Source of the DNA: a bacterium | GTDB lineage: Bacteria > Electryoneota > Electryoneia > Electryoneales > Electryoneaceae | Reading direction: 5' to 3' | Assembly: GCA_020444265.1 (NCBI GenBank) | Contig: JAHLLH010000009.1 | Span: forward strand, 8,427 to 72,426 | DNA length: 64,000 nucleotides | Shown here: positions 3,514 to 49,883 of the stretch, one piece after another | How the letters are laid out: every line of letters begins with the position of its first letter | Position numbering within the stretch: position 1 is the first letter of the stretch | Translations under genes and position numbers: made by a program | Notes under the pieces: model-generated | The model's input: only the letters and a program-made list of their open reading frames with translations | Told to the model about the DNA's origin: nothing | The model's database searches: none

Positions 3514-4611
3514 ATGCTATCAGAAACGGAGCGAACTGTGTCTCATCTTTTTACACCTCTTTCGTTGCGAAGTGTCACGCTTCCCAACCGGATTACCGTC
3601 TCCCCGATGTGCATGTATTCGGCTGTGGATGGGATTCCTCAAGACTGGCACCTGGTCCATCTCGGCGCTCGTGCATCTGGGGGAGCTGGCCTGATCATCG
3701 CCGAGGCGACTGCCGTGGTGCCGGAAGGACGAATCAGCCCCGGAGATACGGGCCTCTGGAATGACGAGCAGGTGGCCGCGTGGGCACGGATCAACACCTT
3801 CATCGAGAGCCAGGGATCGGTACCGGGAGTGCAGTTGGGGCATGCTGGACGGAAGGCTTCGACCAAACGGCCTCCCTTCGATGGGGTCGGACCCATCGCA
3901 CCGGACGAACCAGAAGGATGGCAAACGGTGGCACCATCTGCGATCCCCTTCAAGCCGGATTACCCGATCCCGCACGAGATGACGACGGCCGAGATGCATA
4001 CTTTGACTGATGCGTGGGTAGCATCGGCGAAAAGAGCTCATGCTGCCGGGTTTAAAGTGATTGAACTGCACATGGCGCACGGCTACCTGCTGCACCAGTT
4101 TTATTCACCCATCACCAACCAGCGCACGGATGAGTATGGCGGGTCACGTGACAGCCGGATGCGTTACCCGCTGGAGGTGACCCGCGCGGTTCGAGCAGCA
4201 TGGCCCGAGGAATTGCCTTTGCTGGTTCGCATTTCAGCTAGGGATTGGGTGGATGGTGGCTGGACGATCGAGGATTCTATCGAACTGGCAAAGGAGCTGA
4301 AAGCGGCGGGTGTCGACCTGATCGACTGTTCGAGTGGTGGCGGATCACCAGAAGAACGAGGCAAAGTCGACATCGGGGATCACCCGATGTTTGCGGAGAG
4401 AGTCCGTCGGGATGCGGGTATCACGACAGGAACGGTCGGCGGTATCACTGAACCCGCGCAGGCTGAGGCCCACCTCGCAGAGGGACGTGCCGACCTGGTC
4501 CTGCTGGCGCGTCAACTGCTGCGAGAACCGACCTGGCCCCAACGTGCCGCGCAGGAACTGGGCGATGAACTCGTCTGGCCGAAGCAGTACGGGCGGGCCA
4601 AGCTAGGCTAA
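3514..4611 (+). CDS. NADH:flavin oxidoreductase, Old Yellow Enzyme family (NamA/YqjM-like)
   Basis: Motifs LFTPLSLRSVTLPNRITVSPMCMY and HMAHGYLLHQFYSPITNQRTDEYGGS match the OYE TIM-barrel family. The ORF track starts at a TTG at 3487; ATG codons at 3499 and 3514 are more plausible starts. Confidence 0.8.
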   Translation: MLSETERTVSHLFTPLSLRSVTLPNRITVSPMCMYSAVDGIPQDWHLVHLGARASGGAGLIIAEATAVVPEGRISPGDTGLWNDEQVAAWARINTFIESQGSVPGVQLGHAGRKASTKRPPFDGVGPIAPDEPEGWQTVAPSAIPFKPDYPIPHEMTTAEMHTLTDAWVASAKRAHAAGFKVIELHMAHGYLLHQFYSPITNQRTDEYGGSRDSRMRYPLEVTRAVRAAWPEELPLLVRISARDWVDGGWTIEDSIELAKELKAAGVDLIDCSSGGGSPEERGKVDIGDHPMFAERVRRDAGITTGTVGGITEPAQAEAHLAEGRADLVLLARQLLREPTWPQRAAQELGDELVWPKQYGRAKLG

Positions 4612-10269: not shown

Positions 10270-10935
10270 TTACTCGCCCAATGTCCGGCGCGGTTCGCGA
10301 CGGTTGGTCAGGGCGAAGCTAAGCGCTTCCAGTTCGATCGCCATGTTCTCGTTGCGGACAAAAACTCCGTCCGGCACCTGCACGGTGATCGGGGCGAAGT
10401 TCAGGAATGCACGCACCTTGCACTCGACCAGACGGTCGACCACACCCTGCGCAAACTGCGCGGGGACAGCGACAATGGCGATCTTGATCTTGCCCTTTTT
10501 AACCTCTTCCTCGACATTGGCGAAGTCACGCACTTCGATGCCGTGGTAGACCTTGCCGATCTTGTCGGGATCGTTATCCAGCACCACCTTCATCAGGAAG
10601 CCCTGCTGACGGAACTGGTCGTAATCGATCAACGCGCGACCGATGTTACCCGCACCGACCAGTGCGACATTCCAGGTCTTGTTGATGCCGAGAATACGTG
10701 CGATGTTGCGTTGCAAGTCGGCCACGTAGTAACCCAGGCCGCGCCGTCCGAACGCTCCGAAGAAGGAGAGATCCTTACGCACCTGCGCCGCAGTCAGTGT
10801 GTTCATGTCAGCCAGTTCCTGGCTGGAAATCGTGCGCATCCCCCGGTCGTACGCATACTTGAGCGAGCGATAATACTTGCTCAAGCGCCGTACGGTGGCG
10901 TCCGAAATCTTGTTTCCGTTCGGTGAGACGACCAT
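10270..10935 (-). CDS. rex: Redox-sensing transcriptional repressor Rex
   Basis: An N-terminal winged helix (ATVRRLSKYYRSLKY) is followed by a Rossmann NAD(H)-binding domain (VALVGAGNIGRAL), at the typical length of 221 aa. Confidence 0.9.
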   Translation of the reverse strand: MVVSPNGNKISDATVRRLSKYYRSLKYAYDRGMRTISSQELADMNTLTAAQVRKDLSFFGAFGRRGLGYYVADLQRNIARILGINKTWNVALVGAGNIGRALIDYDQFRQQGFLMKVVLDNDPDKIGKVYHGIEVRDFANVEEEVKKGKIKIAIVAVPAQFAQGVVDRLVECKVRAFLNFAPITVQVPDGVFVRNENMAIELEALSFALTNRREPRRTLGE

Positions 10936-10982: not shown

Positions 10983-13541
10983 CTACTCATCGTCGCCAGC
11001 GTTGTCGTCCGCGTCGCCAGCATCAGACTCTGTATCCGTACCGTTATTGTTTTCGTCATCATCGTCCATGAAGGGAGCGTCCGGATCTTCCTCTTCGACC
11101 GCTTCCTCCACTTCGTCCTGACGGGCCACACGTGCCACGGAACCAATCGTATCGCCATCGTCGAGACGGAGCAACCGGACACCCTGCGTGGCGCGTCCAA
11201 TCACACGGACATCCTTGATCGGCAGACGGATCATGACACCCTTCTGGGTGATGATCATCAAGTCGTCATCATCGACCACCTCCATGATGGTCATCATGTG
11301 GCCGACCTTTTCGGAGGTTTTGATGGTGATCACACCACCCGCGCCGCGTTTGGTCAGACGGTAGTCGGTGACATCACTCCGCTTGCCGTAGCCCTTGTCC
11401 GATACAACCAGCAAAGTTCCGGAAACACGGATGACGACCATGCCGACGACACGTTGTCCCTTCGGCAGGTTGACACCACGGACACCAGCTGCGGTACGTC
11501 CCATCGGACGGACATCGGTTTCACGGAAGCGGACTGCCTTGCCGCCGCTGGTACCGAGGATCACTTCGCAGTCGCCATCGGTGACGGACGCTGCTATCAG
11601 CTCGTCCCCATCATGGATATTGATCGCGTTGATCCCGCCCTTGCGGACGTTTTTGTACGAGTCGAGTGACGTTTTCTTGACCGTGCCCAGGCGAGTAGCC
11701 AGCATCAGGTACTTGTCCTCGGCGAACTCCTTGACGTTGACAAACGCCCGGATGTTCTCGCCGCCAAGTGCGAGCAGGTTGACCAGCGCTTTGCCCCGCG
11801 ACGAACGACCCAACTGCGGAATATCATAGACCTTGAGCCAGTGCAGGCGGCCCATGTCGGTGAAGATCAGCAGGTAATCGTGGGTCGATGCCACGAACAG
11901 ATGCTCGATAAAATCTTCTTCCTTGGTCTTGGCGCCTGTTTTGCCGCGACCACCTCGAGCTTGTCGTCGATAAGAGGAAACCGGCTGCCGTTTGATGTAA
12001 CCGGTGTGACTGATGGTGACCACCATGTCTTCTTCGGCGATCATATCCTCGATGGTGAACTCTTCGTAGTGCTTCACCACCTCGGTGCGACGCTCATCGC
12101 CATATTCGTCACGCAGTTCGATCAACTCTTCCTTGATCAGGGAGAGGCGCGCTTCACGATTGGCCAGCAGGGTCTCGAGTTCGGCGATCACTTCACGGAT
12201 CGCTTTGAGCTCATCGACCAACTTCTGGACTTCCAGACCGGTCAGCTTGGCCAGTCGCATGTCGAGAATCGCCTGGGCCTGGACTTCGCTGAGGCCAAAT
12301 TCACCCATCAGGGATTCGCGTGCGGTTTCGACTCCGCTGCTGCCGCGAATAATCTCGATGACCCGGTCGATGTTGTCGACCGCAATCTTCAAGCCTTCGA
12401 GAATGTGTTCGCGTTCCTTCGCCTTGCGCAGCTCGAACTGGGTACGGCGCAGGACGACATCCTCGCGGTGCTCGAGGAACTTCTGCAGGATGTCGCGAAG
12501 GTTCATCAACTTCGGCACGCCCTTGTCGAGGGCGATCATGTTGATCCCGAAGCTGGACTGCATCTGTGTATGCTTGTAGAGCTGGTTAAGGATAATGTCG
12601 GCGATCGCATCACGCTTGAGCTCGATTACGACTCGTGTACCGTCACGATCGGACTCGTCACGGATATCCCGAATGCCCTCGATCTTCTTGTCGTTGACCA
12701 ACTCTGCGATGCGGAGGATCATCGAGGTCTTGTTGACCTGGTACGGCAACTCGGTGACCACGATCGACTGCATGTCCCCCTTGCCCTCTTCCACATGGGC
12801 ACGGGCACGGATGACCACTCGTCCACGGCCGGTACGGTAGCCCTCATGGACCCCGGAGATGCCGTAGATGATGCCGCCGGTGGGGAAGTCAGGCGCGGTG
12901 ACATACTTGATCAAATCATCGATTTCGCAATCGGGATTGTCGATCAGGTAGGAAATCGCGTTGACAATTTCGGTCAGGTTGTGCGGGGGGATGTTGGTCG
13001 CCATACCGACGGCGATACCACCAACCCCGTTGACCAGCAAGTTGGGAAGCTTGGCCGGGAGGACAACCGGTTCCTTCAGGCTGTCATCATAGTTCGGTGC
13101 AAAGTCGACCGTATCCTTGTCAAAATCGTCGAGCATTTCCTCGGCGATTTTGTGGAGACGGGCTTCGGTGTAACGCATGGCCGCGGCACCGTCCCCATCG
13201 ACCGAACCGAAGTTGCCTTGCCCATCCACCAGCGGGTAGCGCAGCGAAAAGTTCTGTGCCATTCGCACGAGTGTATCGTAAATCGCGGAGTCGCCATGAG
13301 GGTGGTACTTACCCATGACATCACCAACGATACGTGCAGATTTTTTGTACGAAGACCGGGCTCCAACGCCCAACTCACGCATACCATAGAGGATGCGGCG
13401 GTGGACCGGCTTCAAGCCGTCCCGCACATCCGGCAGGGCGCGCGAGACGATGACCGACATGGAGTAATCGAGGTAGGAGTTGCGCATCTCTTGTTCGAGG
13501 GAGACCTCGCGGATGCGTTCTCCAGTAAACTGCAGGCTCAT
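10983..13541 (-). CDS. gyrA: DNA gyrase subunit A, with an acidic C-terminal tail
   Basis: The active-site region (AMRYTEARL), the GyrA box and C-terminal beta-pinwheel repeats are present across 852 aa. The protein ends in a D/E-rich tail. Confidence 0.97.
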
Positions 13542-14462
13542 GGTGTGGGTTATGCTCCGTAGATGCTGATCTGGTTTCCGAGCAAGGGATAGAGTGTCAC
13601 GCTAAACCCACGCGATATAGAACATACCTGGCTCGGGATGTCGGACAGGGACCGGGAACGGCTTGTTGCAAATCAGGTTTTGGAGGGTGGAATCTTGGAT
13701 AGGATCGGTATGATCAATCGGGGATTCCCCCCTGACAGAACCTGGGCAAAGCCGCACGGCCCCGGGAAGTTTGTCTCCCTGCTCCCAGAACCCGGGACCA
13801 AGAAAAAATATACGCACACTTTTTCACATAGGACAAGCGGAATTCAGAGAAATGCCTCCCTTGCTCTTTGTGATGCCTCTAATTTAAGTAATTGGTAAAT
13901 AATGGGATAAATTTACGTGAAATGCTATTGCATCTTTCTGGGACTGGATGCTGCCTGCGACGGTTCCCAGTAGAAACAATACCCACTGAAATTTCTTGTT
14001 CTTACCTAAAGTCAGGTTCCACTCCGGGCTCCGGGGGAAGTGAATAAGATGATAGTGGGGGTGCGTGGAGTGTTGCGTCCATGTCTCGAGCCCTATATTA
14101 CAGAGTGTAAGACGAGTTCATTCTTGCACGAAACGGGCCAATAACGGTCCAAAGTCGTTCAAACTCGCATCAAGCTTATTGTAGAAGGTGATCATGAGGC
14201 AGCTCAGCAAAATTGAGCAGAATGCCCCGCTTCGGAACCGCACGGTTCCGTCGATCCCTCTCTGCACCCCTGCCTGGTGGCGATGGCGGGGCCTTACCCG
14301 CCGTTAACCTCTAGTGTGACTTCGTGGGCATGTCCCACAGTCATCCGTACGTGCACCCGCACGGCGTCAATCCTATTCCCAAAGTCCCGTTCCGGCTTGT
14401 GACCGTACCGCGAAGTACGTCCACTGCTTGTTCATTCCCGGCCCGGGACGGTCGATGATCTG

Positions 14463-14557
14463 CCGTTAATTAGTGACAGTTACTAATTAACTGGTGGTAG
14501 GTAAGCTATTGAGTTTGTAAAGCTGTTTTAATTAGTAACTGTCACTAATTAACGGCT
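14463..14557. promoter_or_regulatory. 95-bp AT-rich element with 29-bp perfect terminal inverted repeats (GCCGTTAATTAGTGACAGTTACTAATTAA ... TTAATTAGTAACTGTCACTAATTAACGGC) 56 bp upstream of the TrpB2 gene; candidate operator or MITE-like insertion
   Basis: The two copies are exact reverse complements (checked base by base) and each is internally near-palindromic. AT content is high against a GC-rich background. A Shine-Dalgarno sequence (AAAGGAG) and the ATG follow downstream. Confidence 0.55.
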
Positions 14558-14612
14558 TTCAAACAGAGATGACCTGTCCATCGAGGACGGTTCGATAAAA
14601 GGAGTTTGTACG

Positions 14613-15971
14613 ATGCAGCACACACGCATCCAGCTCGCACAGGACGATATCCCGAAGCAGTATTACAACATCCAGGCCGATCTCCCGGAAGCTTTGCCGC
14701 CGGTGATTCATCCCGGTACCGGGCAGCCCATCGGTCCGGACGATCTGGCCCCCCTCTTTCCGATGGAACTGATCGGGCAGGAAGTGAGCCAGGAAAGGTT
14801 CATTGACATTCCTGACGAAGTCCGTGACGTCTATTCGATGTGGAGACCAACCCCGTTGATCCGAGCTGTGCGCCTCGAAAAAGCGCTCGATACGCCAGCG
14901 AAGATCTACTACAAGTATGAGGGCACGAGTCCGGCTGGCAGCCACAAGCCGAATACCGCCGTGCCGCAAGCCTATTACAACAAAGTGGCGGGGATCAAAA
15001 AGCTGACAACCGAAACCGGTGCTGGGCAGTGGGGCAGCGCACTTTCCTTCGCTTGCCAACTGATGGGAATTGACCTGGAAGTCTACATGGTCAAGGCGAG
15101 CTACAACCAGAAACCGTATCGTCGATCGATGATCCAGACCTGGGGCGGGCAGGTGTTTCCGAGCCCCAGCGACCGGACCCAGGCGGGCCGTAATGTGCTC
15201 TCGATCAGCCCGGACAGCCCAGGCAGCCTGGGTATCGCGATTAGCGAGGCAGTCGAGCTTGCTGCGACCCGTGAGGATACCAAGTATGCCCTCGGTAGCG
15301 TGCTGAACCACGTGCTGATGCACCAGACGGTGATCGGGGAAGAGGTAAAACGTGGCTTCGAGATCATCGGTGACGAACCGGACATCCTGGTAGCCTGTGT
15401 CGGCGGTGGGTCGAACTTCGGCGGTTTTACTTTCCCCTTCCTCGCGGACAAGATGAACGGCAAGTCCGATATGCGTGTGGTCGCCGTCGAACCGACCGCT
15501 GCGCCAAGCCTGACCAAGGGGCAGTATGTCTATGATTTCGGAGATACGGCCCAGACCACCCCGCTGATGAAGATGTACACCCTCGGGCACAGCTTCATCC
15601 CGGCCCCGATCCACGCCGGAGGGTTGCGTTACCACGGCATGGCACCTCTGGTCTGCCACCTCTATGACCTTGGCTTCATCGAGGCGGTGGCGGTGACGCA
15701 GACAAAGGTGTTCGAGGCAGCGGTCCTCTTCGCACGGACAGAGGGGATTGTCCCGGCGCCGGAACCGAGCCATGCGATCCGAGTCGCGATCGATGAGGCG
15801 TTGAGGTGCAAGGAGAGTGGCGAAGCGAAGACCATCTGCTTCGACCTCTGCGGGCATGGCCATTTCGACATGGCGGCCTATGACGCGCACCTGTCAGGCA
15901 GCCTGGAGGATTACCAGTATCCCGAGACGGAAGTCGGGAAAGCACTCAGCCTGTTGCCGAAGGTTGGGTAG
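14613..15971 (+). CDS. TrpB-like PLP-dependent enzyme (tryptophan synthase beta chain 2, TrpB2 family)
   Basis: The 452-aa length with N-terminal extension matches TrpB2. The PLP lysine context ([16 protein letters not shown]) and glycine loop (GGGSNFGG) are present, preceded by a strong SD. Confidence 0.82.
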
Positions 15972-15986
15972 CAGTTCTTCTGTGTG

Positions 15987-16016
15987 GCCCGGGCAATCTT
16001 GTTGCCCGGGTTTCTT
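15987..16016 (+). terminator. Rho-independent terminator GCCCGGGCAA-TCTTG-TTGCCCGGG + TTTCTT
   Basis: The hairpin is followed by a T-rich run immediately after the TrpB2 stop. The stem is almost identical to the terminator after sucB at 56724. Confidence 0.8.
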
Positions 16017-16031
16017 GGGCACGAACCCGTT

Positions 16032-16120
16032 CCGGCAGGCCTCTGAGCCTGCCGGATTTTCTGTCAGACGAGGGCGTCTGACAGAACGGGTCTTGACTTG
16101 AGCGTCCGGCAGAACGCTCG
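16032..16120. terminator. Three further GC hairpins in tandem in the convergent TrpB2 / TetR gap (CCGGCAGGC...GCCTGCCGG+ATTTT; TCTGTCAGACG-AGGG-CGTCTGACAGA; GAGCGT...ACGCTC)
   Basis: All three are perfect stems when read directly. The first is followed by ATTTT. Confidence 0.5.
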
Positions 16121-16446
16121 CTTAATAGCTGGAACCACGGTGCTGACATGCACGCTTGGGGGGCGGGGCACCCAAGCCACTTGCCTCTGTCATCCCCAGG
16201 GCGATATCCGGCGGTAGCTGGATTGTGTCCGCAGGACACCCCCAGCCCGTCGGGGATCCCCTTTGATCGAAGCCGCTCGGTATGTTTCCATAGGCGGGGG
16301 ATGCCCGACCCGTCTTCGCTGTGGCTATGCCGGGCAGGCGACCGCAACATCTACTTCGTGTCGGTTGGCACCGACATGCGGTCTGGGCATGACAGGTTTT
16401 ATTCTCATAACCGCACATGTTGGGCATGACAGCTCGATATGTTCGA

Positions 16447-17043
16447 CTACTCCTTCGGTGGCAGGATGCCATGCCTCAGCATCTGCAGCATGGAGTTGTG
16501 TTTCAGCTCGAGGAAGGTGTCTACATCCATGCTGGGGTACATCTGGACGATGGAGTCGATGTTGACATGGCTGACGGAAACCATGGAGTCGAGGAGGAAG
16601 CTGAGAGTCGCAGGATCAATCGCAATTTTCCCCTGCTCGTACATCTTGGCAAGCTGCTCGAAAAAGCCGGAGGGGTAGAAGCTGCGGTTCATCACTTTCC
16701 GCATGCTGTCCGGTCCTTCGGACATTGCCCTGAAAAAGATCGAAGCGATCTCACGTCTATCGACCAGGAACTGGTCGAGCAAACGCATCGATTTATCGAT
16801 CATCGCGATCGGGTCTGTTTCCTCTTCGACCGCAAAGGAAATGGCTGAGACGATTGGTTCGGTTGCTTCCATCAGGCACTCGTCCAGCAGCTGATCCTCA
16901 TCGGTAAAGATCGAATGCGCGGCACCAACCTCCACGCCCGCCGCATCGGCCACATGCTTGATGGTCGTGTCGTGTATTCCCTGCTTGCTGTACAGGTCGA
17001 GTGCGTGGTTCAACAGTGCGCGTCGAATCTCTGAAATTTCCAT
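16447..17043 (-). CDS. TetR/AcrR family transcriptional regulator
   Basis: An N-terminal HTH (LYSKQGIHDTTIKHVADAAGVEVGAAHSIF) is followed by an all-helical ligand-binding domain. The length is 198 aa. Confidence 0.75.
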   Translation of the reverse strand: MEISEIRRALLNHALDLYSKQGIHDTTIKHVADAAGVEVGAAHSIFTDEDQLLDECLMEATEPIVSAISFAVEEETDPIAMIDKSMRLLDQFLVDRREIASIFFRAMSEGPDSMRKVMNRSFYPSGFFEQLAKMYEQGKIAIDPATLSFLLDSMVSVSHVNIDSIVQMYPSMDVDTFLELKHNSMLQMLRHGILPPKE

Positions 17044-17069
17044 AGTTCCCCCAGCTTGTCCAGCAACGA

Positions 17070-17816
17070 CTATAAGAGCACATCCAGTTTCGTAGAGGTC
17101 AAGGTAACCCCATCGGAGGTTACTTCTGCCAGCATCGGGATTGCTTCGACACCAACCTCAAGCGCCTCGCGAAACTTCTCCGCATAACCGGGATCGAAAC
17201 CTCGCGCAATGGCGAATCGTTTCGCATCGGCCCGTTGCGCGGTGTAGAGCATGACCGCTCGTTCCCCGGCCTTCACCCGTCCCATCAGCTCATCGAGATG
17301 TTTCGCGCCACGGCTGGTGACCGCATCCGGGAAGGTGGCGATGTCACCCACATTTAGTGAGGTCTTGTCGCCCGGGTCCTCCTGCACGACAGTCGTGTTT
17401 TTCACCTCAACCCAGCAAGGGGGACGGTCCTTTGATTCAAGTAACAGGTCAATCCGGCTGTGGTCTCCCAGCTTGACCTCGCTACGGACCGTGTCATACC
17501 CCTCCAGCCCTGGCACAATTCCCGCTTCGATGGCTTCCTTCGAGATGTGATTCGGGATGGCGGTGTTGACCCCGACCCAGATCACCTGCCCATCGGGCCG
17601 AGTTACTTCGATCTGTTCGAGACCGTAACGGAGTTTCCGTGTCGGCGCATGAGGTCCGCTGATGCGTACACGGTTGCCCTCGTCCTTCAGCCCCGCCATC
17701 GAGCCGGAGTTGGGGCAGTGGACGGTCATCTCTTCGCCATCCACCAGTACATCGGCGAGAAATCGTTTGTAGCGACGCAGCAAGCGTCCCTCGAGAATCG
17801 GTGTCTTGTAGCGCAT
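17070..17816 (-). CDS. sfsA: Sugar fermentation stimulation protein A (SfsA)
   Basis: The 248-aa length and pattern (GRLLRRYKRFLADV...CPNSGSM...) are characteristic of SfsA. Confidence 0.85.
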   Translation of the reverse strand: MRYKTPILEGRLLRRYKRFLADVLVDGEEMTVHCPNSGSMAGLKDEGNRVRISGPHAPTRKLRYGLEQIEVTRPDGQVIWVGVNTAIPNHISKEAIEAGIVPGLEGYDTVRSEVKLGDHSRIDLLLESKDRPPCWVEVKNTTVVQEDPGDKTSLNVGDIATFPDAVTSRGAKHLDELMGRVKAGERAVMLYTAQRADAKRFAIARGFDPGYAEKFREALEVGVEAIPMLAEVTSDGVTLTSTKLDVLL

Positions 17817-31148: not shown

Positions 31149-33698
31149 ATGCGTGACAAGGTACTGAATGTCCTCGTTTCATTCGTAGGCCTTGTCGTGG
31201 TCGCCGCCAGCCTGGTCATTGGTGTGCATGACTACTCAGAACTCTTTATCTGGCGTGTATCCGGAGATTTGGGAACCGCCGTCACACGTGACACTACCAC
31301 CGATATCATGACCTTCAATCTCGTCAGTGAATCAGATGTTGTTGAAGGGGCAATGCCGACAATTGGGGATACAGTTCTAACCTTTAATGGGCTTCCTGCA
31401 ACTCGAGAGAATCGCAACAGTATATTTATAGGGCCCCAGGAACCTGGCACTAAGGTTGACGTTGAATTCCGTCAGCATGGCGAGACAAAGAAAGCGACCT
31501 TCCTCTTCAATGTCCCCAGAAAAGGGGACTTCATTATGTCTGCAGTGATGATCACACTTAAATATGTGATCAACATCGCCTTCCTGATCGTCGCCCTGAT
31601 CGCTCTGATCCAGCAGCCAGCAAGTGGTGCAGCGAGGATGCTGATTCTTTTCAATTTTGCGATGGCCGCACTCATTGCCAATTCGCTGGATCTGGCATCG
31701 GATACGTTCACCTCGGTGAGGTTGACACAACTGAAGGATCTTGCTGAGTCGGCATCCAATATCATCATTCCATCGTTCGCCAGTTTCTGGCTGGGCCTGC
31801 AAACGCTTTTCCCGCGCCCGATCAGACTGATGGAACGTCACCCTGTTCTCGTCTACACGTTCCTCTTTTTACCGGTGGCAGGATTGGTTCTCGCTGTGAA
31901 TGTCGATTGGATTCCCTGGTCGATCTTCCAGATCATGCTCATCGGGTATGTTGCAGCAGGATTTGTTGTCCTCGGGTACAATGTCTCGAAGACGAAAGAT
32001 CCTGTCCAGAAAAGGCAGGCGAAGCTGGTGATGTGGGGAACCGCGGTGGGTCTAACTCCAATGTTTGCGGCCATCGTATTCTTCATTATCTTTCCGGGTT
32101 TTATCAAAGTACTCGGCCTGAGAGGCATCCTGGTGATGCTGATGTTTCTGTTCACCGCGATGCTCGCGGTACCCATCACCTATCTCTACGCTTTCAACCG
32201 TTATGGACTTCTAGAGATTGAGGCGAAAATTCGTCGCGGTACTCGGCACGTCCTTATCACTGGAGTGCTGCTGGCCCTCCTCTTTGGAATTGTTTTCGGA
32301 GCGAGCGAATTGATGGCACGAGTGCTCGGTGTGACCGACCGGACGCCGGTGCTCATTTTATCGGTCGTTCTCGCGGTGGGGGTGACCCCAGCGCAACGGC
32401 GACTGCAACGGTGGCTGGACCGCCGCTTTTTCCCGGAACGGTTCAAATTACGTGGCCTGCTGGACGACTTCCTGCAACGGGCATCCACCTTACCGGACCG
32501 TGAATCCCTCTGGTCGAGCCTTTCACACGAACTGTCCAGCGGGTTGAACGCCAAGAAAGTCTTGCCGCTTCAGCGGATTAAAGAGGGTGGTTTTGAGACC
32601 CTGGATCATCAAGCTGTTCCGCTCGACCCGGAAGGATTGTTTTACAAAACGATGCTGGACGAGCGGAAACCGATCCTGCTGGACGAAGCGTTGCAAAGCA
32701 ATCACATCGAGTTCAAAGATGATGAGCTTGCCTGGTTGCAAGAAAACGAGATTGAAATTATCGTTCCGATCATCGATTCATCCACCATCCAGGGCATCCT
32801 AACCCTGACGGGGCGAGAGGGGGACGATCCCTACGGAGCGGAGGAAGTACGAATCCTCGCCAGCCTGGCCCGTCAGATTGCCTTGACCAGCGAGAACCTG
32901 TTGCTGCTCGAAGATAATGTCGAGAAGAAGCGGCTTGAGGAGCAGTTGGCAGTTGCGCGTCACATCCAGCAGGGCTTCCTGCCCAGCACCATCCCGGATA
33001 CTCCCGGGATCGAGATTTCCGCGACCAGCCTCTTTTGTCTCGAGGTCGCAGGAGACTACTACGATGTCATTTCCCTTCCTGGGGGACGGACCCTTTTTGC
33101 GGTGGGAGATGTGTCTGGCAAGGGTGCCGGGGCGGCGATGATTATGGCCAACCTGCAAGCGAGTCTGCGTGCATTGTCGAGGGTGGAAGTGCCTTTGACC
33201 GAACTGGTTGCGGGGATCAATGACCTGATTCATCACAACACGCCACCGGAAGACTACATCACCTTCTTTGTCGGGATCTTTGACCCGGACTCTTCGAAGG
33301 TGACATATGTAAATGCAGGCCACAACCCGCCCTTTGTCTTCCGGAAGGGAGGCGGCAGGGAACTTCTCGAGGCGGGAGGCGTGATTCTAGGAAGCATTCC
33401 TGGCATGCCGTACGAAGAGGGCGAGGTCGTCCTGACCGAAGGAGACCTCCTGTTGCTTTTCACCGACGGGGTGACGGAAGCGATGAACGAGACGGAGGAG
33501 GAGTTCGGCGAAGAGCGTCTCGCAGATACCGTTCTCGAACATTTTTCTTCCCCCACGGTAGATTTGCTCAGTACCATCGAAGATCGAGTCATTGACTACA
33601 CCGGCGATGCACATTTCGCCGATGATTTTACATTGCTCATTCTGCGACGCGGTAGCCAGGATGCGGAGGGAGCCGCTACAGGATCTGGGGAGGTTTGA
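31149..33698 (+). CDS. 7TM-receptor (7TMR-DISM-like) / GAF / PP2C (SpoIIE-type) protein serine/threonine phosphatase, paralogue 1
   Basis: An extracytoplasmic N-terminal domain precedes 7 predicted TM helices and a GAF-like region. The PP2C motifs follow (AGDYYDV...VGDVSGKGAGAAMIMANLQ...VNAGHNPP...FTDGVTEA...FADDFTLL). Confidence 0.8.
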   Translation: MRDKVLNVLVSFVGLVVVAASLVIGVHDYSELFIWRVSGDLGTAVTRDTTTDIMTFNLVSESDVVEGAMPTIGDTVLTFNGLPATRENRNSIFIGPQEPGTKVDVEFRQHGETKKATFLFNVPRKGDFIMSAVMITLKYVINIAFLIVALIALIQQPASGAARMLILFNFAMAALIANSLDLASDTFTSVRLTQLKDLAESASNIIIPSFASFWLGLQTLFPRPIRLMERHPVLVYTFLFLPVAGLVLAVNVDWIPWSIFQIMLIGYVAAGFVVLGYNVSKTKDPVQKRQAKLVMWGTAVGLTPMFAAIVFFIIFPGFIKVLGLRGILVMLMFLFTAMLAVPITYLYAFNRYGLLEIEAKIRRGTRHVLITGVLLALLFGIVFGASELMARVLGVTDRTPVLILSVVLAVGVTPAQRRLQRWLDRRFFPERFKLRGLLDDFLQRASTLPDRESLWSSLSHELSSGLNAKKVLPLQRIKEGGFETLDHQAVPLDPEGLFYKTMLDERKPILLDEALQSNHIEFKDDELAWLQENEIEIIVPIIDSSTIQGILTLTGREGDDPYGAEEVRILASLARQIALTSENLLLLEDNVEKKRLEEQLAVARHIQQGFLPSTIPDTPGIEISATSLFCLEVAGDYYDVISLPGGRTLFAVGDVSGKGAGAAMIMANLQASLRALSRVEVPLTELVAGINDLIHHNTPPEDYITFFVGIFDPDSSKVTYVNAGHNPPFVFRKGGGRELLEAGGVILGSIPGMPYEEGEVVLTEGDLLLLFTDGVTEAMNETEEEFGEERLADTVLEHFSSPTVDLLSTIEDRVIDYTGDAHFADDFTLLILRRGSQDAEGAATGSGEV

Positions 33699-36236
33699 TT
33701 GCAGCCAAAGGCAATCAAAACAATAATTAATGCCATCGGGCTCCTGCTCCTGGCCTATGTGTTTGTCTTCTTTTCCTGGGAAGGCAGCAAGCTTGCTCGC
33801 TGGAGTATGAGCGGCCAGATAGATTCCGAAATTGAATCGACGGATGGTGTCTCCTGGGTATTCACAGAAATTGACTCCAGCGATTTTGCAGGTGTCTTTA
33901 TCCCCGCCGAAGGGGATACCCTGATCGCGATCAATGATACTCTGACCAGCTACGACCAGATTGATGGCTTTATTACCCAGATTTACGATCCGGGTGAACG
34001 GTTCAAGACCACTTATCGCAGGTTTGGACGTGAACGATCTGCGGTCGCGGTTGCCAAGCCAGTAACTGTTTCCCGTGCCCTGCCCTTTTACATCCTCCAG
34101 GTCCTCCGTCTCCTGATCATCCTCTCCTTTATCGGGGTCGGACTGTGGGCATTTCAGAAACGATCTGACTCGGCGGGGGTGCGGGCGCTTGCCCTCTTTT
34201 CCTTTGCGGTTGCGGCCTTCATGCTCTCCTCAGTGAATGTGCTCAGTTCACGGTACGCTTCGTTCCAGATTCCGTCTCGTACTGTAATCGAGTACACACT
34301 TCGCACGATTTGGGCGTTTGTCGGCGGGCTCTGGCTGTCGCTCCAGCTGCTCTTCCCGAAACGGTCCAGTTTCTTTCGGCGGACAAAGGGCTACAGCTAC
34401 CTCATTATCCTTTTCCCGCAGATCATTCTCGGCATCTTCGCGATCACCGACCAGTTTGAACTGACCCATGCCTTCTCCCCGTTGCTGGCGATTCTGACAA
34501 CGGCGCAATTCACCGTGGGCTTTGCCCTGCTGGCACGACACTATGTGCAGTCACACAACGTCCTCCAGCGCAGGCAGACACGGTTGGTGCTATACGGGTC
34601 AGCGATTGGATTAATTGCTCTGACCTCGCTTCTCTTCATTGGTGCCTTCTTCGGCGGCTGGTTCGCGGAGCTGAGTCTGGCGACCCAACTCGCGATGATC
34701 AACGGCGCCTTCCTGGCGCTGCTGCTGACCCCGGTCTCCCTCGCTTATGCCTTTGGGAAGTATCGTCTTTTGGAGGTGGAAGGAAAGCTCCGCCGTGGGA
34801 CCCGTCACCTGCTGATCACGACCGTCCTGCTGGCTCTCTTCTTCGTTGTGATTTACATGGTCGGCGAGTTGCTGATTCGCAACTTGGGTATCACCAGCCG
34901 TACTCCAATCCTGGTCATTGCGATGTTGCTCGGGTTGGGGATCAGCCCGCTGCAAAGGCGGTTACAGGAGTTGCTCGAACGTCGATTTTACCCGGAACGC
35001 TATCAACTCCGTGTGATGATCGAGGACTTTTCCCAGCGGATGGGCAGCTTCCCCGACCGTGAAACCCTCTACCTGCAGCTCGAAGCACGATTGCGTGAAG
35101 CGGTCGGTGTGGAGCGGATTGTGGCCGTTCTTGCCAATCCGAACGGGGAGTTTCTCTCCCATGACGGCACCGAAACACCGTTCCGCAAGGACAGCGATGT
35201 AATCCAGATGATGATTCGCACGGGTCGTCCCATCCTGATGGACGAGGCGATGGCGAGTCTGCGCGTCCCCTTCTCGGACGGGCAGATCATGTGGATTCGC
35301 CAGCGACGGGTCAATTTGTTGATGCCGATGTTCGCACGGCTCAACCTGATCGGCTTCCTCGCCCTCGGACGGACCACTCGCGGCACGGACTATACCCCGG
35401 AAGTGATCGAGGTGCTGGCAGGTTTGATCAGCCAGGTGGCGTTGTCGAGCGAGAACCTGCGTCTGCTCGAGGACAACCTCGAGAAACGGCGTCTCGAAGA
35501 ACAGCTCCAGATGGCGCGTGACATTCAGGAGGGTTTTCTGCCGCGTGTCATTCCCACGACCCCCGGCATTCAGATCGCCGCAAAAAGCCGTTTCAGCCTC
35601 GAGGTAGCGGGCGATTACTACGATGTCATTGGCTTGAAAGATGGCAAAACTGTCATCGCGGTTGGGGATGTCTCCGGCAAGGGTGCCGGTGCGGCCCTGA
35701 TTATGGCCAATTTGCAAGCGAGTTTGCGTACCGCGGTCAAGGTGGGAGTTGACCTGGGAGAAGTGGTCGGCGAGATCAATGATCTTATCCACCAGAACAC
35801 ACCAATCGAACAGTACATCACCTTCTTTGTCGGGGTGTTTGACCCGGACAATGGTGTGATGACCTATGTCAATGCTGGCCACAATCCACCGATGCTCTTC
35901 CGCAATGGGGGCGAGATCGAGGAACTGAGTGTGGGCGGCATGATCCTCGGCGCGATGCCCGGCATGCCCTACGAGCAGGGCGCCGTCACGCTGGACGAAA
36001 AAGACCGTTTCCTGCTCTACACCGACGGTGCATCCGAAGCGGCGAACGCGCGTGACGAGGAGTTTGGCGAGGACCGTATCCGCGACATCGTCCTCGCGAT
36101 GGACGAGGCCGCTCCGAAAGAGGTGGTTGATCAGATCGAGCGCAAGGTGATGGAGTTCCACGGCAACCGTGAGCTCGAGGACGACTGCACGCTGCTGATG
36201 GTCTGTCGGTGTGCAAATGGAGCTACGCCAGCCTGA
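33699..36236 (+). CDS. 7TM-receptor / GAF / PP2C phosphatase, paralogue 2 (tandem duplicate)
   Basis: The architecture and PP2C motifs are the same as paralogue 1 (AGDYYDVIGLKDG...VGDVSGKGAGAALIMANLQ). It begins at a TTG directly abutting the upstream TGA. Confidence 0.75.
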   Translation: MQPKAIKTIINAIGLLLLAYVFVFFSWEGSKLARWSMSGQIDSEIESTDGVSWVFTEIDSSDFAGVFIPAEGDTLIAINDTLTSYDQIDGFITQIYDPGERFKTTYRRFGRERSAVAVAKPVTVSRALPFYILQVLRLLIILSFIGVGLWAFQKRSDSAGVRALALFSFAVAAFMLSSVNVLSSRYASFQIPSRTVIEYTLRTIWAFVGGLWLSLQLLFPKRSSFFRRTKGYSYLIILFPQIILGIFAITDQFELTHAFSPLLAILTTAQFTVGFALLARHYVQSHNVLQRRQTRLVLYGSAIGLIALTSLLFIGAFFGGWFAELSLATQLAMINGAFLALLLTPVSLAYAFGKYRLLEVEGKLRRGTRHLLITTVLLALFFVVIYMVGELLIRNLGITSRTPILVIAMLLGLGISPLQRRLQELLERRFYPERYQLRVMIEDFSQRMGSFPDRETLYLQLEARLREAVGVERIVAVLANPNGEFLSHDGTETPFRKDSDVIQMMIRTGRPILMDEAMASLRVPFSDGQIMWIRQRRVNLLMPMFARLNLIGFLALGRTTRGTDYTPEVIEVLAGLISQVALSSENLRLLEDNLEKRRLEEQLQMARDIQEGFLPRVIPTTPGIQIAAKSRFSLEVAGDYYDVIGLKDGKTVIAVGDVSGKGAGAALIMANLQASLRTAVKVGVDLGEVVGEINDLIHQNTPIEQYITFFVGVFDPDNGVMTYVNAGHNPPMLFRNGGEIEELSVGGMILGAMPGMPYEQGAVTLDEKDRFLLYTDGASEAANARDEEFGEDRIRDIVLAMDEAAPKEVVDQIERKVMEFHGNRELEDDCTLLMVCRCANGATPA

Positions 36237-37888: not shown

Positions 37889-40270
37889 CTATTTAATGAG
37901 AGTGATCTTCCTTGTCACCACTCTTGAGGAAGTTTCTAGTTTGATAAAATAGGAGCCTGTTGGCCAGGATGAAGCGTCGAGTCGAAGGTTGTAGACACCG
38001 GGCGTTTTTACAGCGTCCAGCAGAGTTGCCATTTCCCGTCCTTGAATATTGTACACCCTGACCTTAACCTTCTCGGTCTTTCCAATGGTGATGGAAATCC
38101 GAGTTTCCGAATTGAACGGATTCGGATAGGCTTGCAGAAGTGTGTGATCTTGTGGATGCAGTGGGATGACTTCATCATCGACCGATACAATTTGTGCCAC
38201 ATCCATGTACATCAAGCCGAGCGCGGTAGATACCCACACTTTTTCGCTGGCCTGATCGTACGTCAGTCCCCTGATTTTAATGAATTGATCGTAGTAGGGA
38301 AGCTCAGACTGATCCGTGTCAAGTCGTTCCCACTGATCCCCTTGATTGGAGACGAGATACATTCCCTCCCTAATATCGAAAGGATCTCCAATTCGTCTGG
38401 ATAGAAGAATATGCGAAGGTGATGTTGGAAGTAATGTAACGCTTGAGGGTTGAAAAATATAGCCTGCGGTCCTGTCCCAAATCCCCTCACTATGACGCCA
38501 CAGACTTCTTGATGCGAACACATAAAAGGATTGATCAGTCGTATCGGCGACTCCATGAATTGGCCAGAGCTGTAGTTGCTCTATCTCTGGGAAATCCATG
38601 TCCTGCCATGTGGCTCCAAAGTCCGTGCTGGAGAAGATGCCATTTGGTGCAAGTGCATAGAGTACATCATCGCCATAGGCGAAGGAGACGACAAATGCCC
38701 ACCCATCCGTTGTGATCCAGGTCTGTCCTGAATCGATCGAGACATCCGTCGTCCAGGATGATTCTAATTCACGGCTTAGCGCGATGATTGAACGATCCGC
38801 TGTCTCGAATAGATCAGGCACAAGCGTCATGCTAGCATGGTTTATACCCGGAGTAAGACTTGTTCCGTACTCGTCCCAGGAGGATCCATTGTCATAACTA
38901 ACGACTGGATGAACGGTTGTAAGTTCTGACTCGACAACGTGTTTTTCACAGAGAGATATTAATTTTGACTGATCTTCCAGAATGACAGGTAACGGGTATA
39001 CAAGAGTGTCGACGGATTCTGGTAAGAGTGAAATTCTCTGCCAATCATTCGTTTCCGATTCATAGAGGTACATCATTCTATCACGTTCACCCCTTGCTAC
39101 GATTCCATTCGTAATAATTTGAAAGTGCATCATTTTGCCAAAGGGAAGTCCAATATTAAATTCTTCCCAGCTGTTCCCGGAGTTATCTGAGGCCCATATC
39201 CCTCGATCCATTGAGCAGATGTACGTTGTTTCGGTATAGGAGTTAACCGAAATTCCTGCGATCACGTTCATGTCTGATGGAAGACCATTTGGATTTCGAG
39301 AAAAGGTTTCCGCGTAATCATTGCTTATGTATACTCCTCGCCCTGTGTTCAGGTAGATTGATCCCCTGACTAGTACAGTGCCATCAGCATGCGGGTCTTC
39401 CACAATTTGTTCAGATAAATTATTGTAGGGTAGGCCAGCATCTGCAGTCGTCCATGAATCCCCCCCATCCAGACTACGAAAGATGGAATCGCAGGCGAAG
39501 TATTCAAGGGGTGGGAACTCGTCATACGAGTGGGACGCCACGGCGACCAGATCACCATTTCCCAGGAAGGTCATGCTCTCAACGGCTGCGCCGGGATGGG
39601 TGATCAGGGTATCCAGATCAAACAGGGGAGACCAAGTCTGATTGAAGTCAGTGGACCTGTAAATGCCGAATTCACGATGTGAGCCAAGGGACAGTCCACT
39701 CAGGTAGAACGTGCTGTCTTGAACGGGATGACGGATAAAGGAAAGTTTCTGTTGGGAGTGATCATCATAGAGTGTGTTTGTCCATGTTTCACCGAAATCC
39801 TCCGAAATACAGATGAAGGCAGCGTTTGTAGCAATTAAGCGGTTGTGATTGTTTCTGTCCACGAGGAGATGATGACTGAGTGAACCCGCATCATGGACCG
39901 GAAAAATTGGATTCCAAGCTTCGCCGTTCATCGTACTAAAAGCCCAAGCCCAACGCTGAGCTGGCGAAAATGACATCATGGCAAAAACGGTGTCCGCATC
40001 TTGGTCGAACGCGACAATTTTGTGAGTTAATCCAATTTTAAATGACTGATCTGGATGAATAAGCTCATTTATCGGCTGCCAGCTCTGGCCAGCGTCATTG
40101 GATTCCCATATCCCTCCGTCTAACAAACCAACGTATTGTCGTGTTCCATCTTCGCTCATCGCAATGGATGAGAAGGCTGGAACAGGACCATTTGTGTTCG
40201 CCCAAGCATACACGGCGAGAGGGATAAGTAACAACGAGGAAAATCCACCAAATCTTAAGAGTCGTCGCAT
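37889..40270 (-). CDS. BNR/Asp-box repeat beta-propeller protein (sortilin/VPS10-like) with a T9SS C-terminal sorting domain, copy 1
   Basis: A signal peptide is present and at least nine S-x-D-x-G-x-(T/S)-W Asp-box repeats follow (SNDAGQSW, SEDFGETW, SLDGGDSW, ...). The C-terminus (YPNPFNSETRISIT...RKITLIK) matches the Por sorting-domain pattern. The product is 793 aa. Confidence 0.8.
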   Translation of the reverse strand: MRRLLRFGGFSSLLLIPLAVYAWANTNGPVPAFSSIAMSEDGTRQYVGLLDGGIWESNDAGQSWQPINELIHPDQSFKIGLTHKIVAFDQDADTVFAMMSFSPAQRWAWAFSTMNGEAWNPIFPVHDAGSLSHHLLVDRNNHNRLIATNAAFICISEDFGETWTNTLYDDHSQQKLSFIRHPVQDSTFYLSGLSLGSHREFGIYRSTDFNQTWSPLFDLDTLITHPGAAVESMTFLGNGDLVAVASHSYDEFPPLEYFACDSIFRSLDGGDSWTTADAGLPYNNLSEQIVEDPHADGTVLVRGSIYLNTGRGVYISNDYAETFSRNPNGLPSDMNVIAGISVNSYTETTYICSMDRGIWASDNSGNSWEEFNIGLPFGKMMHFQIITNGIVARGERDRMMYLYESETNDWQRISLLPESVDTLVYPLPVILEDQSKLISLCEKHVVESELTTVHPVVSYDNGSSWDEYGTSLTPGINHASMTLVPDLFETADRSIIALSRELESSWTTDVSIDSGQTWITTDGWAFVVSFAYGDDVLYALAPNGIFSSTDFGATWQDMDFPEIEQLQLWPIHGVADTTDQSFYVFASRSLWRHSEGIWDRTAGYIFQPSSVTLLPTSPSHILLSRRIGDPFDIREGMYLVSNQGDQWERLDTDQSELPYYDQFIKIRGLTYDQASEKVWVSTALGLMYMDVAQIVSVDDEVIPLHPQDHTLLQAYPNPFNSETRISITIGKTEKVKVRVYNIQGREMATLLDAVKTPGVYNLRLDASSWPTGSYFIKLETSSRVVTRKITLIK

Positions 40271-48671: not shown

Positions 48672-49883
48672 TTGGGGATCTTTTTGTCACACTACAATAC
48701 TCTATCCGGCACATTCTCGTGGCGGGATGATAAAATCGAATGGCCGGTGACATCGGATGTCGGGCCGGGACTCGAGGGAGTGATCGCGAGTGATACTGCT
48801 GTCTCATGGCTTGATCCGACCAGCGGCAGTCTCTCCTACCGTGATGTGCCCATTGAACGGCTTGCTGGGATACGCAGCTTTGAAGAAGTCGCCTACCTGC
48901 TGATTACCGGGGATCGTGACCGTGAAGAGGATGAACTTGCAGCCTTCCGGAGCCGACTCCGCTCCAGCCGCGCCCTGCCTAACGAAGTGGTCCAGCTGAT
49001 TCGTTCGCTTGACCCCTTGATTCATCCGACTCGTTTGCTTCGTGCCGGCGTCTCCGTACTTGGTTGCCATGAGTTGAGTGGCGATGAGGACATGAGCGGG
49101 GAACGTCACTGGCGGGAGTTGCGTGTTGTTGGCCAGGTAGCGGCGTTGGTCAGCGAGATCGCACGCCACCGTGCCGGAAGCGAGGAGCACCAGTACGATG
49201 AGCGGCGCAGCCTGGCCGAGTGCATGCTGGTTGCGTTGCTGGACCGTCCGCCTGAGCCGATCGAAGTGGAAACCCTCGACATGCTCTGGGTATTGTACGC
49301 TGATCATGGCCTCGATGCTCCGACCTTCACCTCGATGATTGTAGCCAGTACCCTCGCCGATCCCTACTACAACGTGGTCGCAGGGCTGTCCGCGTTGCGT
49401 GGCCCACGTTTGGGAGGTGCGGGGGAACAGGTGCTCGAGCAGATTCTTGATCTGGCCGATGAAGTTTATGCGGTGGATTGGGTGCATGAGATGGTAGAGA
49501 AGGGCGGCCGGATTGCCGGGTTCGGGCACCGGATCTACCACATGCCCGATCCTCGAGTCGTCATCCTTCGTAAGCAGATGGCAACCCTTGCACGAGCGCG
49601 TGGACGTGGTGAACTGTTTACCATCGCACGAGCGGTCGAAGAAACCGCCACTGCCCTGCTGGCGCACAAAGGCATCCATGTCAACATCAACTTCTATGCT
49701 GCGTTGCTGTTCCACCTCCTCGGTGCGGACGGCCCGCTGGTGCCAGTGATGTATGTGGTCGGGCGCATGGCCGGGTTGGTGGCACGTGTCCACGAAGCTC
49801 TCGAAAATCCAAAGCTCTATCGTCCCCTGAGCCAATACCTCGGCACTCCGGATCGCGAGATGGACCAGGGAGGTGTGGAATGA
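48672..49883 (+). CDS. Citrate synthase family protein, divergent paralogue (HGGAN motif replaced by RLGGAG)
   Basis: The citrate synthase signature GFGHRIYHMPDPRV is present. The position that aligns with the catalytic-His motif reads ALRGPRLGGAGE. The N-terminal start is uncertain. Confidence 0.65.
   Translation: MGIFLSHYNTLSGTFSWRDDKIEWPVTSDVGPGLEGVIASDTAVSWLDPTSGSLSYRDVPIERLAGIRSFEEVAYLLITGDRDREEDELAAFRSRLRSSRALPNEVVQLIRSLDPLIHPTRLLRAGVSVLGCHELSGDEDMSGERHWRELRVVGQVAALVSEIARHRAGSEEHQYDERRSLAECMLVALLDRPPEPIEVETLDMLWVLYADHGLDAPTFTSMIVASTLADPYYNVVAGLSALRGPRLGGAGEQVLEQILDLADEVYAVDWVHEMVEKGGRIAGFGHRIYHMPDPRVVILRKQMATLARARGRGELFTIARAVEETATALLAHKGIHVNINFYAALLFHLLGADGPLVPVMYVVGRMAGLVARVHEALENPKLYRPLSQYLGTPDREMDQGGVE

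Follow-up and report, generated by a model that had tools for sequence, protein, structure and literature searches.

The origin and role of an inverted repeat upstream of trpB2

The 64-kb stretch of contig JAHLLH010000009.1 analyzed here, which we call the window, carries an AT-rich inverted repeat just upstream of trpB2, a gene for a TrpB-like enzyme, and the locus raises the question of what kind of element this is and why it has been kept there. The initial annotation had offered an operator for a dimeric regulator, a cruciform-forming control element, or a miniature inverted-repeat transposable element (MITE) as possible answers. The reading that we tentatively favor, with a probability of roughly 0.4, is that of a solitary palindrome doublet resembling REPINs (hairpin-forming doublets of repetitive extragenic palindromic, or REP, sequences), which was inserted into the trpB2 leader and has been retained there as a sequence-specific long hairpin.

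A repeat search of the window found two 29-nt arms that are complementary at 29/29 positions and separated by 37 nt, which gives a total element size of 95 bp (Table 1). The initial annotation had described the arms and the spacer correctly, with positions that were one base too high. It had also seen an internal near-palindrome in each arm, which proved to be tighter than the 9-N7-9 form that it gave: each arm holds a 25-bp near-palindrome of the form 12-1-12, in which the centre is unpaired and one pair (G10/T16) is asymmetric. The arms mirror each other, asymmetric positions included, and the two palindrome centres lie 62 bp apart. The AT-rich character of the element within GC-rich surroundings was borne out, with a GC content of 0.35 over the 100 nt from 14450 to 14549 versus 0.56 for the window, and all six frames of the 25-mer contain stop codons.

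The inverted repeat is real, and a chance origin is excluded. Uniform random sequence of 64 kb would be expected to hold about 7e-11 inverted repeats with perfect 29-nt arms within 300 nt of each other, and none of 100 shuffles of the window gave a match to the 25-mer pattern. No perfect inverted repeat in the window is longer than the 29 nt of this one. Since the identical sequence was present in an independent Logan assembly (L001), and a diverged copy was present in another sequencing run (L002), the element is no assembly artefact.

When folded as RNA, the element forms a single hairpin of -49.3 kcal/mol (z = -9.1); the corresponding DNA fold has -29.9 kcal/mol. The local hairpins that the single arms can form on the + strand are far weaker, with -11.4 and -5.2 kcal/mol, the former value being that of the left-arm hairpin with its CC/GG extension. 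The first 4 nt of the spacer (CTGG), which extend this local hairpin, are conserved.

Table 1. Positions of the element, its leader, and the genes discussed (window coordinates unless another locus is named)
Feature	Position	Strand	Remarks
Left arm	14462-14490	.	GCCGTTAATTAGTGACAGTTACTAATTAA, 29 nt; repeat search
Left-arm 25-bp near-palindrome	14466-14490		TTAATTAGTGAC-A-GTTACTAATTAA
Spacer (loop of long hairpin)	14491-14527	.	37 nt
Right arm	14528-14556	.	Exact reverse complement of left arm
Right-arm 25-bp near-palindrome	14528-14552		TTAATTAGTAAC-T-GTCACTAATTAA
Leader-peptide ORF	14194-14307	+	MRQLSKIEQNAPLRNRTVPSIPLCTPAWWRWRGLTRR, ends AWWRWRGLTRR
Leader-peptide ORFs of relatives	L002 1224-1337; L003 362-475; L004 1183-1290; L005 9724-9831
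Conserved leader hairpins P1-P5	14282-14448	+	RNAalifold; window, L002, and L003
P1	14282-14290/14297-14305	+	Overlaps third Trp codon and stop codon
P2	14316-14328/14333-14344	+
P3	14346-14354/14359-14366	+
P4	14404-14408/14415-14419	+
P5	14436-14440/14444-14448	+
Element-to-start-codon stretch	14557-14612	+	56 nt; from right-arm end to ATG at 14613
Small conserved hairpin	14578-14590	+	GTCC-N5-GGAC; in the 56-nt stretch
Ribosome-binding site	14600-14605	+	AAGGAG
trpB2	14613-15971	+	TrpB-like pyridoxal phosphate-dependent enzyme, 452 aa; NF009057, 737.8 bits (cut-off 366 bits); PALP domain
TetR-family regulator gene	16447-17043	-	PF00440; candidate binder only
sfsA	17070-17816		Far side of tetR-trpB2-leader block
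gyrA	10983-13541	-	Upstream neighbour of intergenic region
Rex	10270-10935		Other candidate DNA-binding protein
Palindrome of L007	L007 1653-1677 (= L017 395-419)		Between convergent lexA and HAD hydrolase genes, supplying both stop codons

Comparison of the element with that of a close relative

The lineage represented by L002 has 96% TrpB2 identity to the window and carries the element in the corresponding place; its arms read GCCTTTAATTAGTGACAGTTACTAATTAG and CTTTAATTAGTAACTGTCACTAATTAAAGGC, and they too are 37 nt apart. At the neutral level the two lineages have diverged by about 46%: the difference at four-fold sites is 0.49 for trpB2 and 0.40 for gyrA, and identity is 54% for the intergenic stretch with the least constraint (13841-14080). 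Against this, 3 of the 58 arm positions differ (2/29 in the left arm and 1/29 in the right; P = 6e-12), and the palindrome interior is conserved at 49/50 positions. The flanking GCC/GGC and the central bases of the arms are the same in both lineages. For the leader, identity amounts to 82-84%, and for the 56-nt 3' flank to 66%.

The few changes that did occur in the arms respect their pairing. One left-arm change is complemented by the single change in the right arm, which converts a G-C pair into U-A by a double change, and the other converts A-U into G-U, so that neither lineage has lost any of the 29 pairs. The spacers match at 17/37 positions (46%) in direct comparison (shuffle mean 10, P = 0.009). 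An inversion of the spacer between the lineages was rejected, with 10/37 matches in the inverted comparison, which is the random level. Because the direct similarity beats that of shuffles and the inverted one is random, the two elements derive from one ancestral insertion, in which the spacer drifted neutrally without being flipped. Altogether, these alignments show strong purifying selection on both arms at every position, with a spacer of fixed length and free sequence, and they support the view that the element is a cis-acting functional site.

The predicted tryptophan leader around the element

The element is located within the 1.07-kb gyrA-trpB2 intergenic region and is thus extragenic. 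The assignment of the downstream gene to TrpB2 and the distance of 56 bp to its start codon had both been given correctly in the initial annotation, which also placed the element upstream of this gene and missed the leader peptide and the structured leader around it. The leader-peptide open reading frame (ORF) has GAAGGTG, a Shine-Dalgarno-like sequence, directly upstream and contains three Trp codons within four codons (14275-14280 and 14284-14286). The window, L002, and L003 (a relative with 85% TrpB2 identity) all have the same 3' block, CTGGTGGCGATGGCGGGGCCTTACCCGCCG, in this ORF, the last 10 codons being unchanged at the nucleotide level, and in L004 and L005, with 73-74% TrpB2 identity, the leader ORF ends in STLWLWRV*. 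Clustered Trp codons ahead of a stand-alone trpB2 were seen in five lineages (WWRW in the window, L002, and L003; WLW in L004 and L005), and this arrangement suggests that a TrpB2-type gene is subject to ribosome-mediated Trp attenuation.

Between this ORF and the element, an alignment of the window, L002, and L003 yielded five conserved hairpins, with 8 of the 49 predicted pairs showing compensatory changes, and about 13 nt separate the last of these hairpins from the start of the element. Because the conserved leader ORF and the five conserved hairpins lie upstream of it, the element sits inside a structured, apparently transcribed 5' leader, of the kind known from classical Trp leader peptides. 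As in trpL-type attenuators, a short ORF with clustered Trp codons (WWRW) is followed by alternative-looking hairpins and a tryptophan-biosynthesis gene. The differences are that the gene controlled is a stand-alone trpB2, that a canonical U-tract terminator was not detected, and that the element forms an extra module before the ribosome-binding site, in one sub-lineage only. Neither a sigma-70-like promoter (by a scan for the consensus only) nor a canonical U-tract terminator was predicted on the + strand between 13500 and 14700, and a U-tract is likewise absent 3' of the element hairpin. Rfam gave no match at gathering thresholds in the whole window, and no T-box or other riboswitch emerged; the relaxed-threshold matches on the element were microRNA-precursor hairpins only and were judged spurious.

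Some further observations concern the same region. RNAalifold also predicted that the Trp-codon stretch (UGGUGGC) pairs over a long range with the bases that immediately precede the element. An 8-mer, GCCGTTAA, occurs both at the leader stop codon (14300-14307) and at the left end of the element (14462-14469), and is complementary to its right end (14549-14556); L002 has GCCTTTAA, and the coincidence is probably due to chance. The sole promoter-like site between 13500 and 14700 is a gyrA promoter block on the minus strand (13807-13836, TTGTCC-18-TATATT), which is conserved in the window, L002, and L003 and recognizable in L023. The gyrA 5' untranslated region of about 265 nt (13542-13800) is 77% identical to that of L002, versus 54% for neutral sequence, and the gyrA leader may be structured or regulated.

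Distribution of the element and history of the locus

The element is present in the window and in L002, and the Trp leaders of L003, L004, L005, and L006 are kept without it. On this distribution it is a lineage-specific insertion, gained before L002 and the window lineage separated. Since the Trp leaders of L003, L004, and L005 are free of the element, the attenuator can do without it.

The surrounding genes have a similarly restricted distribution. In the GyrA relatives L022-L029 (81-89% identity), sfsA adjoins gyrA, separated from it by no more than a short unannotated ORF, and no trpB2, leader, or tetR was found in this interval. Because the block is missing there, the tetR-trpB2-leader block (13840-17069 in the window) is a lineage-specific addition, placed between sfsA and the gyrA promoter. 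No gyrA-trpB2 arrangement was found among the GyrA relatives (L022-L030) that were searched for further lineages, and the scan of 48 window ORFs turned up no further trp gene. The small orf134 (15946-16350), which lies in the same block, showed no similarity to equivalently placed small ORFs in L027 or L003 and may not be a gene.

Outside these lineages, 185,579 species genomes were scanned with the exact pattern, and a single site came up. Since the scan returned neither the window lineage nor an L002-like relative, the window lineage lies outside this collection. The site is in a metagenome-assembled genome (MAG) of a different phylum (Candidatus Aegiribacteria/Fermentibacterota; L007) and consists of one perfect palindrome, TTAATTAGTGACAGTCACTAATTAA, which is 24/25 identical to the window arms and corresponds to the outer halves of the two arms (the left half of the left one, the right half of the right one) put together. 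At the orthologous spot of L018 (77% LexA identity; around 3626-3678) there is a different, 53-nt imperfect palindrome, inside which the convergent lexA and HAD hydrolase genes likewise end and which has only its centre GTGACAGGCACTA in common with L007, the centre reading GTGACAG(G/T)CACTA.

A possible retained REPIN-like hairpin

REPINs consist of two inverted REPs with imperfect centres and a less conserved spacer, form hairpins, and measure about 89-100 bp, with long perfect palindromic singlets as derived forms (PMC3337134; bioRxiv 10.1101/2021.07.10.451892). In Pseudomonas and enterobacteria, REPINs and REP singlets are mobilized by tyrosine transposases that are associated with REPs (RAYTs; Bertels & Rainey 2011; PMC3337134, PMC3116915). 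The element of the window resembles them in its inverted imperfect palindromes, whose centres mark orientation, in its spacer, which is less conserved and has a characteristic length, in the nearly perfect hairpin of 90-100 nt with its 29/29 stem, and in its extragenic position. The L007 singlet, placed between the converging ends of two genes, is extragenic as well; in place and form it resembles a REP singlet, and it fits a possible origin of the element from a REP-type palindromic element.

According to this reading, the doublet would consist of two mirror-image copies of an imperfect 25-bp palindrome whose mutual complementarity reaches 29 nt. The doublet would have entered the trpB2 leader between the Trp-codon attenuator and the ribosome-binding site and would then have been kept by purifying selection. 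The putative constraint would cover all arm positions, such that the arms stay perfectly complementary and also keep their sequence. The element would act as a long stem-loop bound by a structure- or sequence-specific protein. This stem-loop could form in single-stranded DNA or in the leader RNA (-49 kcal/mol), where its formation would be obligatory if transcription from the leader promoter reads through. Its likely target would be the trpB2 transcript after the attenuation decision, at the level of processing, stability, or elongation, rather than promoter firing. A long hairpin would explain in one step the uniform constraint, which takes in the centre and the GCC/GGC flanks outside the dyads, the mirror-exact asymmetry, the pairing-preserving nature of the changes, and the certain folding in read-through RNA.

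Several observations weigh against this reading. The REP/REPIN family is repetitive by definition, whereas the element is solitary in the collections searched. No further copy was found in the window at up to 8/25 mismatches, nor in 226 kb of fetched loci beyond L001, L002, L007/L017, and the unrelated L008-L016; the L007 species genome, too, has a single exact site. A Pfam scan of 48 window ORFs found no RAYT, Y1_Tnp, other transposase, or recombinase. The element furthermore differs from typical REPINs in being AT-rich and not GC-rich, in lying in a 5' leader and not at 3' ends or between cistrons, and in being conserved at a single orthologous locus of an uncultured lineage of the Fibrobacteres-Chlorobi-Bacteroidetes (FCB) group. 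A neutral mobile copy would not keep 95% identity, and a locus-specific function must be added to the insertion. With regard to the stem, several wobble changes (A-to-G, C-to-U) would be expected under selection for stability alone and one was seen; because of this scarcity, sequence-specific recognition is needed in addition. A dimer binding duplex DNA may account equally well for conservation at the sequence level, and a long hairpin does not need the internal dyad symmetry of the arms. As to L007, its palindrome may have arisen in place and not by insertion, given the different palindrome in L018, and there is a slight chance, of the order of a few percent at most, that this single database match is coincidental.

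A possible pair of operator sites

The alternative that comes closest is a two-site operator, which we consider possible and somewhat less probable than the retained hairpin. Each 25-bp near-palindrome would bind a dimeric helix-turn-helix regulator, the two together forming one dyad-symmetric repressor complex or a road-block. Operators of the TetR/AcrR family, including those of the QacR type, are inverted repeats of 24-28 bp, and auxiliary downstream operators act by looping or as road-blocks. The 12-1-12 symmetry of the arms has this appearance, and the centre-to-centre distance of 62 bp, or about six helical turns, would place both sites on the same face of the helix. Conservation of the interior at 49/50 against a neutral divergence of 46%, and a spacer of fixed length and free sequence also agree with dyad binding sites, which L003 lacks. 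An overall dyad axis would explain why the outer (GTGAC) and inner (GTTAC) half-sites differ and are nevertheless mirrored. The scarcity of further copies suits a locus-specific site, and the single wobble change stands against an estimated seven or so that stem stability alone would tolerate. Such an operator would add a second layer of control beyond attenuation, perhaps responsive to indole or tryptophan. The nearest candidate regulator is the TetR-family protein, whose gene belongs to the same lineage-specific block: L022-L029 lack it, together with trpB2 and the leader, in the sfsA-gyrA interval.

The operator option of the initial annotation therefore stays a live rival, with a conserved cis site (55/58 positions) and clear dyads in its favor, but its weak point is the position of the element. 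No promoter-like site was found in or beside it, and since it lies about 250 nt downstream of the start of the leader ORF, a road-block would be the only possible action. The tetR gene is not divergently adjacent to the element, as is usual, but convergent with trpB2 and located 476 bp past its stop codon, and no copy of the palindrome was found near the tetR 5' end. Constraint on all 29 positions, including the centre and the GCC/GGC flanks, exceeds the usual contacts of transcription factors. A further difference from known paired operators is that the two sites are exact mirror images, asymmetries included, and both substitutions preserve the pairing between the arms. In L007 the related site is flanked by the stop codons of two convergent genes, which is not a place where one expects an operator, and the motif was found in no relative outside the genus.

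Other regulators were considered as well. The Rex box (TTGTGAA-N4-TTCACAA) is unlike the site in the element. A stretch at the inner end of the left arm, ACTAATTAACTGGT, matches ACTAGTTAACTAGT, the core of the E. coli trp operator, at 12/14 positions. This match straddles the arm-spacer boundary, is reduced to 9/14 in L002, and lacks a counterpart at the right arm, and we treated it as chance.

A bolder form of the retained-hairpin reading, to which we give rather low credence, would combine elements of both views. In this form, a REP-type doublet that was once mobile would have been domesticated to give an indole-salvage trpB2 a second, single-copy control module. This module, a sequence-specific 29-bp hairpin with perfect pairing or a dual dyad site, would lie ahead of the ribosome-binding site and after the ribosome-mediated Trp attenuator, and its reader would be a dedicated protein such as the co-acquired TetR-family regulator or a hairpin-binding HUH-type protein.

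Mobile passenger and other alternatives

It is unlikely that the element is a selfish, currently mobile MITE or REPIN copy, a passenger without a role in trpB2 expression. Its 29-bp terminal inverted repeats, small size, and AT-rich, foreign composition would suit such a copy, as would its presence and absence across orthologous leaders and the related palindrome in another phylum. MITEs derived from insertion sequences (Correia, RUP, and IS630-type elements) are comparable in their length of about 100 bp, terminal inverted repeats, hairpin transcripts, and possible influence on the expression of neighbours. The MITE option of the initial annotation was nevertheless not supported. No target-site duplication flanks the element in the window (gatgatct|...|tttcaaac) or in L002 (acgatct|...|ttcccaac), the further copies of the 29-mer that the initial annotation had proposed to look for were not found in the window or the related loci, and no transposase was found among the window ORFs scanned. 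Dispersed copies or a related insertion sequence were found neither in these loci nor in GTDB species genomes, JGI metagenomes, IMG/VR, plasmids, or phages. The arms being palindromes themselves is a further difference from such MITEs. Finally, the similarity of the spacers points to a single ancestral insertion, and a neutral copy of that age would be about 46% diverged, not 5%.

The matches that these database searches did return were discarded. Those from JGI metagenomes (L008, L009) are AT-rich, apparently eukaryote-like or unrelated, and have a different centre; the seven from IMG/VR are on contigs of 20-31% GC, one of them named as a giant-virus MAG, and all have a different centre; BLAST against plasmids and phages gave nothing relevant. 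Four of the IMG/VR contigs (L010, L011, L013, and L014; 31% GC, L014 being the giant-virus MAG) have a common block, TTAATTAGT-ATATTYR-ACTAATTAA, with similar flanks, and on the marine metagenome contig L008, TAATTAG motifs are clustered upstream of an ORF. These look like separate families of AT-rich repeats or binding sites that are unrelated to the window.

The least probable group of explanations comprises a part of the Trp attenuator itself (terminator or anti-antiterminator), for which the position in the leader just past the last conserved hairpin would speak and against which stand the same Trp leaders without the element in L003, L004, and L005 and the missing U-tract; a supercoiling-sensitive cruciform, as the initial annotation had suggested, which the AT-rich inverted repeat at about 0.65 kb from the gyrA promoter might allow and which is improbable with a 37-nt loop, as such loops disfavor cruciform extrusion; and an invertible switch, in which the arms would be read as 9-bp inverted repeats around asymmetric 7-bp cores in opposite orientation, but for which the 62 bp between cores are too short for known invertases, the spacer has no conserved promoter and the same orientation in both lineages, and no recombinase gene was found in the window. 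A CRISPR mini-array was rejected as well: the 62-bp period and the 37-nt spacer would suit such an array, but the copies agree at 88% as direct and at 100% as inverted repeats, and there are no cas genes.

Other features of the window

Two further inverted repeats were noticed. The first, 9721-9750/9982-10011, has 30-nt arms that are 90% complementary and 231 nt apart, each arm being a GC-rich hairpin (GTCATCCCGG-N-CCGGGAT) without further copies in the window; this is a second palindrome-doublet or MITE-like structure, of a different sequence family. The second, an intergenic repeat at 37790-37813/37855-37878 with 24-nt arms (88% complementary) and a 41-nt spacer, resembles the element in size (about 89 bp) and layout and is unrelated to it in sequence. 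The window also contains a tandem pair of citrate synthase genes (48672-51001), a tandem pair of SpoIIE/GAF phosphatase genes (about 850 aa; 31149-36236), and, about 6 kb apart, the genes of two 793-aa Sortilin/BNR proteins with type-IX-secretion sorting domains (37889-40270 and 46087-48468). Type-IX-secretion sorting domains are thus found on window proteins, and multihaem cytochromes are encoded as well. Among named relatives by GyrA, the closest bear the labels Calditrichota and Candidatus Electryonea.

Implications

The element belongs to known kinds, palindromic doublets or operators, and the practical value of the finding is modest, since it concerns a single locus of a single genus-level lineage. 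Of wider regulatory relevance is the Trp leader peptide, which all five of the examined trpB2 lineages conserve. Should the element be an operator pair, a stand-alone trpB2 would be under dual control by attenuation and a repressor, which would bear on the unsettled physiology of TrpB2, for example in indole salvage. If it is a domesticated module, one leader would combine the sensing of tRNA-Trp with a second signal, in an uncultured phylum of the FCB group. If, as we tentatively favor, it is a REPIN-like hairpin that has been exapted, it would clearly exemplify how a palindromic repeat element can come under purifying selection in the leader of one gene, and such elements would extend to an uncultured FCB-group lineage near Calditrichota and Electryonea.

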